From NCBI GenBank assembly GCA_963833225.1, contig CAWHXD010000008.1:640001-704000 (forward strand): a stretch of 64,000 nt of DNA. Reading direction: 5' to 3'. Shown piece by piece: positions 551 to 22,361 of the stretch. The DNA comes from an uncultured Chloroflexia bacterium. GTDB lineage: Bacteria; Chloroflexota; Limnocylindria; Limnocylindrales; CSP1-4. Both the position numbers and the translations under genes were made by a program. Each line of letters opens with the position of its first letter. The first letter of the stretch is position 1. Below the pieces are notes generated by a model. The model was given only the letters and a program-made list of their open reading frames with translations, made no database searches and was not told the origin of the DNA.

Positions 551-1810
551 TCAGGGCCGCAGGTACCCGGAGTAGAGCACCGCCGCGTCGCAGTCCGTCG
601 GCGGCTCGCACACGAGCGACAGCCGCAGCTGGTCACCCACGCCGATCACGATCGGCGTCACGAAGTGCACGTCGTAGTCGCGGAAGTTCTCCAGTCGCAG
701 GCGCATCAGCGGCGTGTCGTTGCGAAGCACCACGATCGCGCCCTGGCGCCCGTTGGGGTTCGAGAACAGGAAGTCGGTCAGGAACAGCGTGCCGTTAAAC
801 ACGGCCGCCTTGGTGCCGTTGTCGAGCGACCCGTCGATCGGGGTGCCGAGGCCGGGGATCACGGCCCGCCGCCACCGGGCGTGGGCGGGGCTTCGGTGGG
901 CGGCGCGGCGGTGTCGCCCGGGGCAAGGGTCGGCGTCGGCGCCGCATCGGTGGGGGTCCCCCCGCTGCCCGTCCCCATCGTCGGCAGCCCAGCGTCGCTG
1001 AGCGCCTGGTTGACGTCGTCCTTGAGGCTGGCGAGGGGCGAGGACACGGCGTCGGATGCCGCGGTCTCGATGGTCGGCTTGAGCAGGAACAGCCAGATCA
1101 GGATGAGCGCGACGATCGCGACGATCAGCAGCAGCAGCGCCTTGAGGAACCAGGGCGGCAGCACGGACTCCTGGAGCAGCGTGCCCTCGAGCTGGATCGG
1201 CTGGCCCCCTTCGGGCTTGACGAACAGCTGGAACGGCCGGGTCTTGGGCTGCCCTCGCCAGAAGCGCTTGGCCGGGCTGACGCGCACCTTGGCGAACTCG
1301 GCCATGCCGGGCTCCACCACGACCGCGGGCGGCTTGACATCGAAGGTGAGCTGCTGGTCCTCGTCCGTCGCCTCGATCTCGGCCGCGAGGCGCGCGTTGC
1401 CCCGGTTGTCGACGGCGATCTCGTGCGAGCCGCCCCGAGACCCGCGTGACGTCCGTCGGGACCAGCTCGGCGCGCGGGTCCATGAAGGACCCGACCTGGA
1501 CCGAACCCTCCTCCACCGCGGAGCCCGCGGGGTCCTCGCGCGATCGCGCCCGCAACCCGAACGCGAGGACCCCCGATGGCGTTGACGCGACGCGCGGCGG
1601 CGCGAAGACCGCCTTGGCCTCGCCCTCCGCGCCCGGGAACAGGCTGAGGGTCGCGGGCTCGCAGGCCGCCCAGGCGGCGGCATCCCCGAGGACGTCGAGC
1701 GCGAACTCGTCGACGACGGTCCCGGTGTTGCGGACCTTGACCGTGATGGAGACAGATTGGCCCGGCTCGACCGAGATGGCCGGCGTGACCAGCGTGACGG
1801 ATGCACCCAC
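551..1810 (-). CDS. CIS-associated membrane protein (COG1470-like Ig-fold repeats plus TM), similar to Streptomyces CIS 'hydrolytic proteins'; frameshifts near 1455 and 860
   Basis: Composite of ORFs 551..1885 and 859..1863: VKVRNTGTVVDEF...LSLFPG, AVDNRGN, FWRGQPKTRPF, TM LLLLIVAIVALILIWLFLL, Pro/Thr linker, C-terminal LENFRDYDVHFVTPI. Confidence 0.75.
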   Translation of the reverse strand: MGASVTLVTPAISVEPGQSVSITVKVRNTGTVVDEFALDVLGDAAAWAACEPATLSLFPGAEGEAKAVFAPPRVASTPSGVLAFGLRARSREDPAGSAVEEGSVQVGSFMDPRAELVPTDVTRVSGRLARDRRRQPGQRAPRGRDRGDGRGPAAHLRCQAARGRGGARHGRVRQGARQPGQALLARAAQDPAVPAVRQARRGPADPARGHAAPGVRAAALVPQGAAAADRRDRRAHPDLAVPAQADHRDRGIRRRVLAPRQPQGRRQPGAQRRWAADDGDGQRGDPHRCGADADPCPGRHRRAAHRSPAHARWRRAVIPGLGTPIDGSLDNGTKAAVFNGTLFLTDFLFSNPNGRQGAIVVLRNDTPLMRLRLENFRDYDVHFVTPIVIGVGDQLRLSLVCEPPTDCDAAVLYSGYLRP

Positions 1811-1886
1811 GGGCGGAGTGTAGCGACGCGGAGCCCCGGCGAACAGGGGGTGGACGGCGGCAATACGGGGCGGTCTCATGTCCATT

Positions 1887-1916
1887 CGGGCACCGTTGGG
1901 CTGCCCGTTAAGTCAG
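1887..1916. promoter_or_regulatory. CIS promoter motif, copy 1 (CGGGCA-N9-TGCCCG plus shared 19-mer)
   Basis: Reverse complement of 1898-1916 (CTGACTTAACGGGCAGCCC) matches 3422-3440 at 17/19. Confidence 0.5.
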
Positions 1917-19353: not shown

Positions 19354-22300
19354 GAGATCGCGCCCGCCCCGTCCACGGCCACGCCCAGCGCCTCGAGCAC
19401 GAGGGCGTACTCGCGCCGGTCGCGGGTTGCGGCACCCGCATCGCCGCCCCGTTCCCGCGCGGCGATGAGCATCCGCCACAGGGCGTCCTGGTAGCGGTCG
19501 AGCTCGAGCCCGAACCGGCAGGTCCGGACGACGGCGGCGAGGTCGCCGGCGAGCAGCGACGCCTCCGCGAGCCGCTCCGCGGCCTCGATGGCCCGGGCTG
19601 CGGCACTGGTCGCGCCGCTCGGTGACCCAGCCGGCAGGCCCTTCCTCCGGCAGGAGGTCGCCCGTATAGAGGTCGACAGCGCTGGCGAATGCCGCGGCCG
19701 ACAGGTCGCCCTGGTCGCTGGTCGCTCGCCCGGCAGCGATCGCCAGGTCGAATCGTCCCAGGTCGACGTCCTCGGCAGCGACCGCAAGCCGGTAGGCATC
19801 GCCGTCGCGGCCGATGAGCCGGCTGCCGATCGGTCCAGCCTCCTCGTCGAGCAGGCGTCGCAGCGCCGACAGCGCCACGTGGAGACTCCGAGCGCCGGCC
19901 GTCGCGTCCGACTCGGGCCACAGCGCCTCCTGGATCACCTCGCGGTGAACGGGTGCCCCGGCGTGGAGGGCGAGCAGCCGGAGCAGCGACCGGGCCCTCG
20001 GCTTGACCCCGTCGAGCGAGACCCGTCGTCCATCGGCCTCGAGCGCGAACCCGCCCAGCGTCCGGACCTGGACGCTGGTCGCCTGCTCGTCGGCCGCCGG
20101 GTCCACGGGCTCAGCGGCTCCCACGCCGGACGATGCTGGCGCGACGGTGCGGCCGACCGCCCAGGGCGGCAGCACCAGCCCCGTCTCATCGCCGTCGCGG
20201 TCGCCAGCCGGAGGTGGTCATCGGCATGCGCGGGATCCACCTCCGCGAGGGCCGCGTGGGCCATCATCCGTGCGGCCGGCGTGCCCGAGGCTCGCGCCAG
20301 GGCCTCTGCGGCCACGGCGTGCTCGCCGGCATCGGGCAGGCCCGCATGCGCCGCCGCAAGGGCACCAACCGACCGGGCCCAGGCCTCGAGCACGCCGGTC
20401 CCGAGGTGCCGGAACGCATCGGCCGCGGTCTCCGCCGAGGTCACGGTGGCGTCGATGGGTCCGTCCCCGCACCAGGCGGCCGCAAGCTGCAGCAGCGCGG
20501 CGCCCCACGGCTCCTCCTCCGCGAGGGCCGAATCGCGGTCGAAGCCCGAGGCGGGTTCCGGCCGGCGCGCCGCCGACGTCACGGCGTCGCCGCCTGCGCG
20601 GCTTGCCATGCGCCCGGCGAGGACACGCCCTAGCCGCGCGAGCCAGGCGATGCCTGCCCGCTCAGCGTCCTCCACGGCCCGGTCGAAGGTCCGCGCGTCG
20701 CACGGCTCGCCCCCGAGCACCGCGGCGACGGTGGCGCCCAGCCGGGCAGCGGCCGTCGCAACCGGACCTCCCTCGCCCGAGTCCGCCGCATCGGTCAGCA
20801 TCCGGTGCGCAACCGTCACCTCGCCGGATGCCAGCGCGAGCAGGCCACGCGCGACCGGCGCCAGGCGATCGGCCCGGTGCGCCAGGTCGCGGACGGCGGT
20901 TCCCGGGTCGCGGACCAGGCCCGTCCGCAGGATGCCGGCGGCGTCCGGCTGGGGAATCGTGAGCGGGTCCAGCCAGGCGGCCAGCGCCAGGCGCTCGGCA
21001 CGAGGCACCTCCGCGGCGCGGACCGGCCCAAGGCCCGCCTCGGCGTGGGCGTAGGCCGCGAGGGCGGCCGCCCAGCGCCCGTCGTTGCGCGCCCGACGCG
21101 CCGCGGCGAGGGCAACCCACGGGTCGTGGCGCTCGATAGCCGGCGGCAGCTCCTCGATCCAGCGTCCTTCGCTGCCCGCGGCCAGCCGCTCCCCTTCCCC
21201 GCCCAGCAGCCGGCGGACCGCGTCCCAGTCCGCCGCGCGCGAGTACGCGCGCAGCGCCTCGGCAAACGCTCCCTCCGCCTCGAGCAGCCGGCCGGCCCGA
21301 TCGTGGCGGTCGCGGGCCGCCGCCTCGCCGATCTCCTCTACCAGCATCCGGTCCAGGTGCTGGCGCAGGATCTCGTGATAGCGGTAGGCGTCCGTCCCGT
21401 CCTCGATCGGGACCGTGAACACGCCGCGCCGCGCCAGCTCGTCGAGAAGCGCGTTGCTCCCGGTCGCGCCGCGGATCTCGTCGCACAGGTGGCCCGACAG
21501 GCGCCCCAGGACGCAGGTGTCGAGGAGGAAGGTCTGGAGCTCCGCCGGGAGCCCGCCCATCACGTTCTGGGCGAGATACTCCCGCAGCAGCCGGCCCGAC
21601 GATCCCGGGCCGCCGAGGACGCGGCGACGCTCCTCGGGCGAGCGTCCCCGCGTCGCGAGATGGAACAGCTGGAGGCCCGCGGCCCAGCCCTCCGTGCGTC
21701 GGGCGAGCGCGGCGAGATCTGCCGGGGGCACCGGGTCGTGGTAGACCTCGCGGAACAGCTGTTCCACCTCCCAGGCGCGGAACCGGAGGTCGTCCGTGCC
21801 CACCTCGAGCAGGTCGTCCGCGACGCGGAGGCGAGACAGGTTGAGCACCGGGGCCACGCGGGTCGCCACCAGCAGGGTGAGCCACGCGGGCGCGTAGTCG
21901 ATGAGCCGTCCGAAGGCCGCCTCGGCCGGCGTGTCCTCCAGGTAGTAGAAGTCGTCGATCACGAGCAGGACCGGCGCCTCGGGCGACCCCGTGGCCTCGA
22001 GATCGCGCACCGCGTCCTCGACCGTCCGCCAGCCGCCGGCGAGCGATGGCAGGGCGGCCGACAGCGACGCCTCGAGGTGGCGGACGAAGGACAGCTCGTC
22101 GGCGTCCCAGGTTTCCGCGCGGTACCAGGCGACGGGCCGGCCGGCGATGGCGGCGAAGCGGGCGAGGAGCGTGGTCTTGCCCGAGCCCGCGGGAGCGATG
22201 ACGAGCGTCAGGCGCTTGTGGATCGCCTCGGCGAGACGCGCCTCGAGGCGCTCGCGGGGCAGCGCGGCAAGCACGGGAACCCGGATCTTCGCCGGCACCA

Positions 22301-22361
22301 CCGGCAGCGTCCCCACGTCGGCCGAGCGGCCCGTCGTCGCGCCCTCCCGCGCGTCACGCAA
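19350..22361 (-). CDS. MalT-like STAND NTPase regulator with C-terminal winged helix and BTAD; frameshifts near 20200 and 19600
   Basis: [42 protein letters not shown]; then [28 protein letters not shown] end [15 protein letters not shown]. Confidence 0.85.

Follow-up and report, generated by a model that had tools for sequence, protein, structure and literature searches.

A type IId contractile injection system cluster with a CisA-family gene in an uncultured Chloroflexota genome of Limnocylindria type

The window analysed here is a stretch of 64,000 nucleotides (G000:C8:640001-704000) from the chromosome of an uncultured Chloroflexota of Limnocylindria type, and positions are counted within it unless another record is named. 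Judged by its gene content, the locus at 551–22361 is a complete type IId ("Streptomyces cytoplasmic") contractile injection system (CIS) cluster. Directly after the baseplate gene Cis12 (end 17117), it carries a gene (17194–19353, + strand) for a 719-amino-acid (aa) protein with zinc ribbons and a transmembrane (TM) helix, which is related to the proteins encoded at the CisA position of Streptomycetaceae loci. We read the locus as a cytoplasmic CIS of the actinobacterial IId lineage that would be docked to the membrane by its CisA-like protein and would kill its own producer. This mechanism is modelled on Streptomyces, and we give the reading a probability of about 0.6. According to the literature, CisA is the only known factor linking a free cytoplasmic injection machine to the membrane for firing, and it has been reported from Streptomyces and other actinomycetes. 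The assembly comprised 3.89 Mb in 20 contigs and was 86% complete. Because many spurious open reading frames (ORFs) are open at its GC content of approximately 72%, genes were called by third-position GC (GC3) and homology.

The CisA-like membrane protein

The CisA-like protein begins with a zinc ribbon, followed by a spacer of approximately 420 aa, a second zinc ribbon (residues 449–476), a basic juxtamembrane stretch, a TM helix (approximately residues 531–555) and a C-terminal domain (CTD). The CTD contains a CBM32/F5-8-type-C domain (approximately residues 585–719), which is predicted to lie outside. Pfam located Zn_Ribbon_1 at residues 455–476, with four cysteines that were invariant in 62 family members. 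Eight lysine or arginine residues precede the TM helix and four follow it; the predicted topology is N-in/C-out. The spacer consists of 34% proline and 18% glutamate and is encoded by approximately 98 copies of GAGCCG. This repeat occupies 17389–17972, and the spacer is the part of the protein that varies most between relatives.

The C-terminal 279 residues (hereafter the module) matched the CisA-position proteins of three Streptomycetaceae loci in tblastn (E=1e-28, 3e-12 and 3e-11). A profile of the 62-member family aligned with the same three proteins over 263 columns, from the zinc ribbon to the C-terminus (hhalign 100%, E=1.2e-54). The AlphaFold2 model built on the 62-member alignment had a mean pLDDT of 86, with values of 95–99 over most of the CTD, and Foldseek matched the CTD to CBM32/F5-8-type-C/DOC beta-sandwiches (TM-score 0.6–0.76 on the target). 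The family comprised 1128 clusters at E<=1e-3 and 583 at E<=1e-10, and the module was always C-terminal. By these homology criteria, the protein is a member of the family of Streptomycetaceae CisA-position genes, and the terminal zinc-ribbon/TM protein described in an earlier note on this DNA was confirmed by the Pfam double zinc ribbon, the TM helix and this family homology. Published descriptions of Sco4242/CisA give a cysteine-rich, probably zinc-binding segment just before the TM helix and then a conserved, carbohydrate-related CTD of approximately 150 aa (PMC10020575, PMC12237407). CisA is encoded directly after the baseplate genes, its N-in/C-out topology was shown experimentally, and it is needed for contraction (PMC10020575, PMC10066040, PMC12237407). 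A complex prediction for Cis11 with the zinc-ribbon/juxtamembrane segment of the CisA-like protein (alignment residues 1–88) yielded a score of 0.01 (mark 0.32) and weighs neither way.

A second, short CisA-family gene with zinc ribbon, TM helix and F5/8-type-C domain was found approximately 1.7–2.6 kb to the left of the window start (L091:15361-16314, − strand). It matched Pfam NADase_transloc (E=6e-15) and was 24% identical to the CisA-like module over residues 15–257 (E=4e-8); a further N-terminal zinc ribbon lay in another frame (L091:16392-16424). Equivalent paralogues (26–33% identical, frames of 366–416 codons) were located approximately 20 kb from the main CisA-like gene in nine genomes of the same genus, at a single place in each (G001, G006, G008, G009, G010, G013, G014, G015 and G016); G019 had two places. 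The region formed by L091:11768-18542 (− strand) and window positions 1–542 encodes a PD40 beta-propeller protein, the paralogue, and TM-anchored proteins of 517 and 674 aa that have no Pfam family. These genes may constitute a membrane or envelope module linked to the CIS, and the CIS neighbourhood probably continues past the left window edge with the PD40 protein and the second CisA-like gene.

Structural relatives, sheath phylogeny and distribution

The sheath (Cis2; 6635–8149, + strand) had its best solved match over its whole length in the S. coelicolor CIS (8bky_A/9gtp, E=1.3e-203). A chain of the same system was the top match for all five proteins compared with solved structures. The other four were the baseplate wedge Cis11 (Baseplate_J; 14617–16563, + strand; 9gtp_1K, E=2.3e-239, residues 1–647), the baseplate wedge Cis12 (Tail_P2_I; 16563–17117, + strand; 9gtp_E, E=1.5e-41), the VgrG-like spike Cis8 (PF04717; ~12498–14183, + strand; 9gtr_q, E=3.3e-71) and the cap or tail terminator Cis16 (Pvc16_N, DUF4255; 5874–6446, − strand; PF14065, E=3e-37; 9gts_0A, E=2.7e-58). 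The entries 9GTP, 9GTR and 9GTS are those of the S. coelicolor CIS (PMC12237407). Matches of the sheath to AFP, PVC, AlgoCIS, the Anabaena system, pyocin and T4 were far weaker (E=1e-49 down to 1e-13).

Three annotated plasmid CIS loci served for comparison with Streptomycetaceae. Sheath identity was 67% to Kitasatospora sp. NBC_00070, 61% to Streptomyces sp. NBC_01426 and 60% to S. clavuligerus pSCL4, and the annotated proteins of the three loci matched the window gene for gene in tblastn with the order kept. The synteny proposed in the earlier note was therefore recovered with these plasmid loci, and the S. coelicolor genes SCO4242-SCO4263 were compared only through solved structures. The designation of the system as Streptomyces-type agreed with the five top structural matches and with this gene order. 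Likewise, the accessory set was found to mirror that of Streptomyces: the LuxR regulator was 47–49% identical, a zinc-ribbon/TM homologue stood at the CisA position, and the STAND/BTAD regulator resembled those flanking the S. clavuligerus locus.

Host placement was based on kinship labels and public record titles. Among the best 80 sheath relatives in the named genome collection, records titled Chloroflexota, Chloroflexia, Limnocylindrales or Limnocylindria came first (73–93% identity), with Dormibacterota-labelled records at 74–75%, and these were followed by Ilumatobacteraceae and Acidimicrobiaceae (68–73%) and Pseudonocardiales (68–70%). Two records titled 'Eisenbacteria' and 'Saccharimonadales' (L037 and L051) fell inside the Limnocylindria-type and Dormibacterota-labelled groups and are probably mis-binned. 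The suggestion of a Chloroflexota-like host that is not a Streptomyces was upheld by the 3.9-Mb genome and by the Chloroflexota and Limnocylindrales titles of the closest relatives.

A quick tree was built from 84 sheaths, namely that of the window, 79 of the 80 relatives (the partial L075 was dropped) and those of four named plasmid loci. The window fell into a group of 53 rows that was nested within the actinobacterial part of the tree; 51 of the 53 had Chloroflexota labels. A more careful maximum-likelihood tree contained 59 sheaths: 39 rows of the quick tree, with close relatives thinned, and 20 sheaths from other Chloroflexota families. Its Streptomycetaceae rows came from the plasmid loci, and it contained neither S. 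coelicolor nor a named Roseiflexus sequence. In this tree, a clade of 38 rows with 97/100 support united the window with Streptomycetaceae, Acidimicrobiia, Pseudonocardiales, Dormibacterota-labelled and Limnocylindria-type sheaths. A separate clade (93/99) held 17 other Chloroflexota rows together with Deinococcus grandis, the sole named marker of that clade and a strain of the published Chloroflexota/Deinococcota lineage (PMC12998442). Forcing a single Chloroflexota clade, a group named after the tree had been seen, was rejected by the approximately unbiased (AU) test (delta lnL 184, p=2e-38). The placement of the sheath among CIS subtypes, proposed as a check in the earlier note, thus put it in the actinobacterial clade (97/100). 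Most likely, Actinomycetota and Limnocylindria/Dormibacteria exchanged this lineage horizontally, independently of the Chloroflexota/Deinococcota lineage already published.

The CisA-like module followed the same division. Within the genus, 12 of 24 other genomes contained a sheath at least 76% identical to that of the window, and one more had a 40% identical sheath only. The module was detected at E<=1e-45 in the same 12 genomes (12/12), and the other 12 contained nothing or weak zinc-ribbon matches. Neither sheath nor module was found in 16 small (1.0–1.4 Mb) genomes of a sister family in the same order. Across the phylum, 401 genomes were drawn, including the unpublished G271, with cut-offs of E<=1e-20 for the sheath and E<=1e-8 for the module. 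Eighty-two of them, counting the genome of the window (G000), had a sheath match, and 14 besides G000 had a sheath of 74–81% identity; these 14 fall in three families, one of them Dormibacterota-labelled. The module was present in 13 of the 14 and in none of the 386 others (0/67 with a more distant sheath, 0/319 without a sheath). It adjoined the CIS in five of five genomes of other lineages, among them a Dormibacterota-labelled chromosome, Ilumatobacteraceae and Acidimicrobiaceae. As far as these sequence matches go, the module follows the actinobacterial sheath lineage. As the search of the other Chloroflexota CIS lineage did not reveal it, CisA, by being present or absent, offers a simple genomic marker for telling two kinds of cytoplasmic CIS apart. 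This locus and the survey around it show the CisA family, the Sco4256-type effector family and the actinobacterial sheath lineage moving jointly into Limnocylindria-type Chloroflexota and Dormibacterota-labelled genomes.

Gene content, effector, regulators and reading frames

Pfam families detected over 551–22361 were the sheath, two gp19-type tube proteins, CIS_tube with LysM, the VgrG OB-fold, gp25, Baseplate_J, Tail_P2_I, the Pvc16_N cap, WHD with AAA ATPase, eCIS_core, DUF6760, a GerE/LuxR helix-turn-helix (HTH), the double zinc-ribbon/TM protein and a STAND-type NTPase. The set was complete for the parts modelled in the S. coelicolor CIS (CIS-Sc), namely Cis1a, 1b, 2, 7, 8, 9, 11, 12 and 16 with the AAA+ ATPase, in the Streptomyces gene order. 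The locus was collinear in 12 same-genus genomes. All structural genes had been claimed in the earlier note, and their families were found at the coordinates it had given, with chance excluded by the E-values of the sheath and Cis11. Its gene boundaries changed at two points: the sheath starts at 6635 and not at 6449, and a 781-aa 'VgrG' ORF resolved into two genes in different frames, Cis7 (11668–12498) and Cis8. The cap gene on the minus strand was added to its list.

Between the cap gene and the left end of the locus lie a Cis15-type AAA+ ATPase with a winged-helix domain (3505–5523, − strand; PF22977, PF00004), which was 48.5% identical over residues 1–653 of the 659-aa Streptomyces ATPase, and a small eCIS_core (DUF4157) protein (2733–3377, − strand; PF13699, E=7e-35). 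The latter resembled Sle2 of S. lividans (described in PMC13277306) in size, domain and position; no Sle1-like coiled-coil gene lay beside it, and a search for the eCIS_core family in 14 control genomes gave no match. Downstream of the sheath, the inner tube Cis1a (8188–8622, + strand; PF06841, E=2e-22) matched Streptomycetaceae tube genes in tblastn. It is followed by a conserved small protein at the Cis3 position (8690–9064, + strand), labelled by position only and 65–73% identical in tblastn to a hypothetical protein whose gene follows the tube gene of Streptomyces and Kitasatospora, and by a DUF6760 protein (9061–9219, + strand; PF20546, E=9e-13) that was 63–65% identical to the Streptomycetaceae DUF6760 genes. 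The second gp19-type tube protein (Cis1b/Cis5, tube initiator; 11247–11744, + strand; PF06841, E=2e-26) also had tblastn support. Cis7 (+ strand; CIS_tube, PF19266, E=2e-24, with LysM) was 35% identical to the Streptomyces LysM protein, and the gp25-like baseplate protein Cis9 (14210–14614, + strand; PF04965, E=1e-26) was 51–56% identical to the Streptomycetaceae genes. No tail fibre gene follows Cis12; the CisA-like TM gene occupies the fibre position, and a regulator on the opposite strand comes next.

The tape-measure position is held by a 672-aa Pro/Ala-rich protein (9216–11234, + strand) with no Pfam family. It was fast-evolving (41% identity to the G006 orthologue) and had no match in any of seven more distant CIS loci tested. 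Because no similarity was found beyond the genus, it was labelled by position only, and its identification as a conserved tape measure was rejected.

At the left end of the locus, the gene at 551–1885 (− strand) encodes a relative of the Sco4256-58 effectors, identified by GC3 frame plot, tblastn and the G008 orthologue. The encoded design comprises two Ig domains of PapD/ASH-like type, a single TM helix, a linker rich in P/T/A and, at the C-terminus, a small beta domain. In tblastn, a Streptomyces 'RICIN domain-containing protein' and an S. clavuligerus 'hydrolase', each encoded beside a CIS, were matched over their N-terminal halves, and a 476-aa Kitasatospora protein, whose gene follows the one at the CisA position, was matched in full. 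The G008 orthologue (419 aa) was intact and matched residues 1–476 of the 476-aa Kitasatospora protein (E=2e-74). Its model contained two Ig-like domains with pLDDT mostly at least 90, a long TM helix, a disordered linker and a small beta domain. Fold matches were to ASH/SPD-2 domains and FimC-type chaperones; the search was dominated by the N-terminal Ig domains, and the C-terminal domain, for which Pfam gave nothing, was given no fold class. Of 51 loci with a length of at least 15 kb, 29 carried relatives of the effector in the flank upstream of the sheath. In seven of these 29, only the first 249–278 residues matched, and the C-terminal domains have therefore been swapped. Sco4256-4258 are described as sharing an N-terminal region like pilus-assembly chaperones and one TM helix, with a variable C-terminal domain that has a RICIN fold in two of the three, and homologues of the Sco4256 type have previously been noted in Chloroflexi (PMC10020575, PMC10066040). 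The 'COG1470-like TM protein' of the earlier note thus exists as a gene, but tblastn and fold assign it to the known Sco4256-type effector family, and its TM helix is out of frame as assembled.

Two regulators were identified. The LuxR/GerE-type HTH regulator listed in the earlier note (2051–2665, + strand, ORF open from 1757) was recognized by PF00196 (E=5e-13); its identity was 48.5% to the LuxR protein that accompanies the CIS of Streptomyces sp. NBC_01426 and 46.9% to that of S. clavuligerus. The large regulator (19350–22361, − strand; AAA_16/AAA_22/nSTAND5) consists of a STAND NTPase, a helical region, an OmpR-type winged HTH (wHTH; Trans_reg_C) and a BTAD (SARP-like) end, and it is split between frames as assembled. 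Its G006 orthologue is a single frame of 1013 codons with STAND, Trans_reg_C at 797–851 and BTAD at 876–1010. For the large STAND regulator of the earlier note, the STAND part was therefore present, but the ORF was incomplete: the Trans_reg_C end was in another frame and the BTAD domain is known from the intact G006 gene. Homology of the STAND protein to the large AAA ATPase that neighbours the Streptomyces LuxR was also considered and was rejected, as tblastn gave no match.

The effector gene read as three pieces in frames -2/-3/-2 according to the GC3 plot and tblastn, and no intact effector frame was found in the window; the earlier note had overlooked the frame shifts. Relative to G008, the gene had one extra base near 1456–1457 and one missing base near 865–868, which displaced 196 central codons, among them those for the second Ig domain and the TM helix, from the reading frame. 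GC3 stayed at 0.93–1.0 in the displaced frame. The regulator had a frame of 812 codons with its Trans_reg_C match in another frame and differed from G008 by single bases at 19599, 20191 and 21837. The structural genes tested had no frame break, the PD40 gene at the left window edge also looked frame-shifted, and the CisA-like gene of G008 had a frame break of its own, with its N- and C-terminal parts in different frames. Contigs of four public runs, from other strains 90–99% alike, were aligned to the window; the share of the words of the stretch found in any public run was at most 0.22. Both contigs bridging 1456 lacked the extra base there (2/2), and the window-specific indels at 479 and 2006 were each absent from the single contig covering the site. 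All three were also absent from G008. The site near 865 was bridged by no contig, and two contigs ended at 864. Pyruvate phosphate dikinase (PPDK; 22564–25531, − strand), which adjoins the locus, was split near 23500, with PEP-utilizers_C positions 6–60 and 59–291 in separate frames. Since this is a housekeeping gene split in the same way, assembly indel errors are suggested, and we consider it likely that the shifted frames of the effector and regulator genes have this origin and do not reflect real inactivation. Further along the window, a CorC/HlyC-type transporter gene (49988–51328, − strand) retained only CNNM TM positions 2–39 before its CBS pair, which may also be a frame problem.

Other genes of the window included NfnA/NfnB-like genes (25299–29063, + strand; FAD_binding_6/NAD_binding_1, DHODB Fe-S, Fer4_20 with Pyr_redox_2) and a glycerol set (37076–43685, + strand; MIP channel, FGGY kinase, DAO with BFD, FAD_binding_2, CCG/Fer4), from which the earlier note had drawn its guess at the host. 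Proteins with TSP3-repeat, PIN and SHOCT domains were encoded between metabolic genes at 30284–33709 (− strand). The segments 55259–58253 and 62586–63998 (both − strand) had the order alr ... tsaE-tsaB-(rimI fused to tsaD), with a GNAT-TsaD fusion of 548 aa.

Proposed mechanism, alternatives and known systems

By analogy with S. coelicolor, the particles would assemble free in the cytoplasm. The CisA-like protein, in its predicted N-in/C-out orientation, would place the CBM32-like domain in the cell wall and extend the zinc ribbon and the long Pro/Glu spacer into the cytoplasm. A stress signal might then cause it to recruit the baseplate to the membrane, where contraction and firing would follow. 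Firing would insert the effector, a single-pass membrane protein, into the envelope of the producer itself and so lead to regulated cell death.

Several points weigh against this reading. The machine is known here from the genes of an uncultured host, and particles, location and target are argued from analogy. Streptomyces uses its system in a mycelial life cycle, and in a host with a small genome (3.9 Mb) the role may differ. Homology to CisA was compared only with the same-position proteins of three Streptomycetaceae loci and not with SCO4242. The group subjected to the AU test was chosen after the tree had been seen, and the direction of transfer depends on a root formed by one long outgroup branch. 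In the assembled sequence, the TM helix is lost from the effector and the DNA-binding end from the regulator. The contigs of other strains cannot settle the status of the indels, with 865 unbridged, and if the indels are real, the copy in the window may be inert.

One alternative is a membrane-anchored, outward-firing system that hits neighbouring cells through the envelope, with the CisA-like protein as a permanent anchor comparable to the cyanobacterial thylakoid TM fibre-like protein. It would account for a TM protein in the fibre position with a CBM32-like domain outside the membrane and for a second CisA-like paralogue nearby, and it was raised for S. coelicolor by Vladimirov et al. (PMC10020575). 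A Pro/Glu spacer of approximately 420 aa, however, is a flexible tether and not a rigid anchor. Nor was a membrane complex of the type VI secretion system (T6SS) found: the TssK, DotU (TssL) and VipB (TssC) families were unmatched in the 86%-complete genome, with an E. coli control that matched each time, in line with the claim that T6SS membrane-complex genes are missing. We regard a permanently anchored machine as unlikely. A classical extracellular CIS of the AFP/PVC type, set free when the producer lyses and directed against other organisms, would share the eCIS_core protein and the AAA+ ATPase with the present locus, but the locus has no tail fibre gene. As the earlier note had stated for lysis genes, no holin or endolysin family was found among the scanned ORFs (those of at least approximately 58 aa). 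The sheath was also matched far more weakly by AFP/PVC chains (E=1e-43 to 1e-50) than by the S. coelicolor CIS (1e-203), and in the tree the locus falls in the clade of systems shown to be cytoplasmic (PMC10066040). An extracellular role is very unlikely on these grounds.

The core genes are homologues of phage-tail genes, as a prophage tail module would require. Yet in 50,697 phage records no sheath came closer than 35% identity, against 55–68% for the Streptomycetaceae CIS loci, no capsid, portal or terminase family occurred among the scanned ORFs, and collinearity in 12 same-genus genomes also speaks against a prophage; we attach next to no weight to this explanation. The locus might instead be decaying and non-functional, with genuine mutations behind the shifted frames of the effector, regulator and neighbouring PD40 genes, in a strain that no longer fires or regulates the machine. 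Such decay would fit the single-base indels seen in comparison with G008 and G006, of which the effector has two and the regulator two or more, and also the extra base at 1456 that both bridging contigs lack. The tested structural genes are nevertheless unbroken, codon bias is intact in the displaced frame, and the two effector indels cancel each other. Moreover, the PPDK gene is split alike and the CisA-like gene of G008 is broken too, a pattern that fits assembly indel errors. Decay is accordingly judged quite improbable.

Beyond the preferred reading of a cytoplasmic, CisA-docked machine, it is conceivable, though doubtful, that Limnocylindria and Dormibacteria, soil and freshwater lineages with small genomes and probably without mycelium, acquired a complete actinobacterial CisA-dependent suicide machine horizontally and use it as a stand-alone death device, triggered by stress or infection and without a developmental cycle. 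The two CisA paralogues, both with a CBM32-like domain outside, would then serve as alternative sensors of the state of the cell wall and determine when the cytoplasmic particle docks and fires. If so, CisA-type adaptors (1128 clusters) would be a widespread trigger class for intracellular CISs beyond Actinomycetes. The locus also raises the question whether a multicellular life style is needed for self-killing by a CIS. Its practical value is limited, as the machine type is known and is read here from genes alone.

The machine, CisA, the effector family and cytoplasmic CISs in Chloroflexota are already published. The earlier note's 'uncharacterised lineage' accordingly holds for a sub-lineage only, cytoplasmic IId systems in Chloroflexota having been described in PMC12998442. 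In the literature searched, contractile injection was not found in connection with Limnocylindria or Dormibacter, and cisA together with Chloroflexota occurred only in PMC12998442 and one unrelated paper. Likewise not found were the actinobacterial sub-lineage, as opposed to that of Roseiflexus and Deinococcus, in Limnocylindria-type or Dormibacterota-labelled genomes, the CisA family outside actinomycetes, and a CisA that strictly follows the actinobacterial sub-lineage; supplementary homologue lists may include such cases.

The Chloroflexota/Deinococcota lineage of Roseiflexus, Thermogemmatispora, Calidithermus and Deinococcus (Gaisin et al. 2026, PMC12998442) shares with the present locus the host phylum, subtype IId, the absence of fibres and a proposed cytoplasmic action. 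In contrast, the window sheath belongs to the actinobacterial clade, and its identity to the D. grandis sheath is no more than 49%. The present locus has a CisA-family gene, whereas the family was absent from all 67 Chloroflexota genomes with more distant sheaths, and PMC12998442 reports no close cisA homologue for Roseiflexus. In the thylakoid-anchored CIS of Anabaena (PDB 7b5h), a TM protein likewise ties the CIS to an internal membrane, and producer-cell death is described (PMC10020575). This system is far more distant (sheath E=1e-49, spike E=5e-27), and its anchor protein is part of the particle.

The closest likeness is to CIS-Sc (S. coelicolor sco4242-sco4263; PDB 8bky, 9gtp, 9gtr and 9gts) and the S. 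lividans SLP. The locus shares their structural parts, has no fibre gene either, and continues after the baseplate genes with a member of the CisA family. Further common features are an effector of Sco4256 type, the small protein with DUF4157, and two regulators, one of LuxR type and a large one of STAND/BTAD type. The hosts differ, as a 3.9-Mb Chloroflexota genome stands here against a mycelial actinomycete. CisA of CIS-Sc has 468 aa, whereas the CisA-like protein has 719 aa with an extra N-terminal zinc ribbon and the Pro/Glu repeat spacer. CIS-Sc has three effectors, and the present locus has one, with a small C-terminal domain that is not RICIN. Unlike in the S. lividans SLP, the DUF4157 protein is not accompanied by a Sle1-like coiled-coil gene. 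The locus further differs from both systems in the regulator order STAND-wHTH-BTAD and in the second, short CisA-like paralogue approximately 20 kb from the first.

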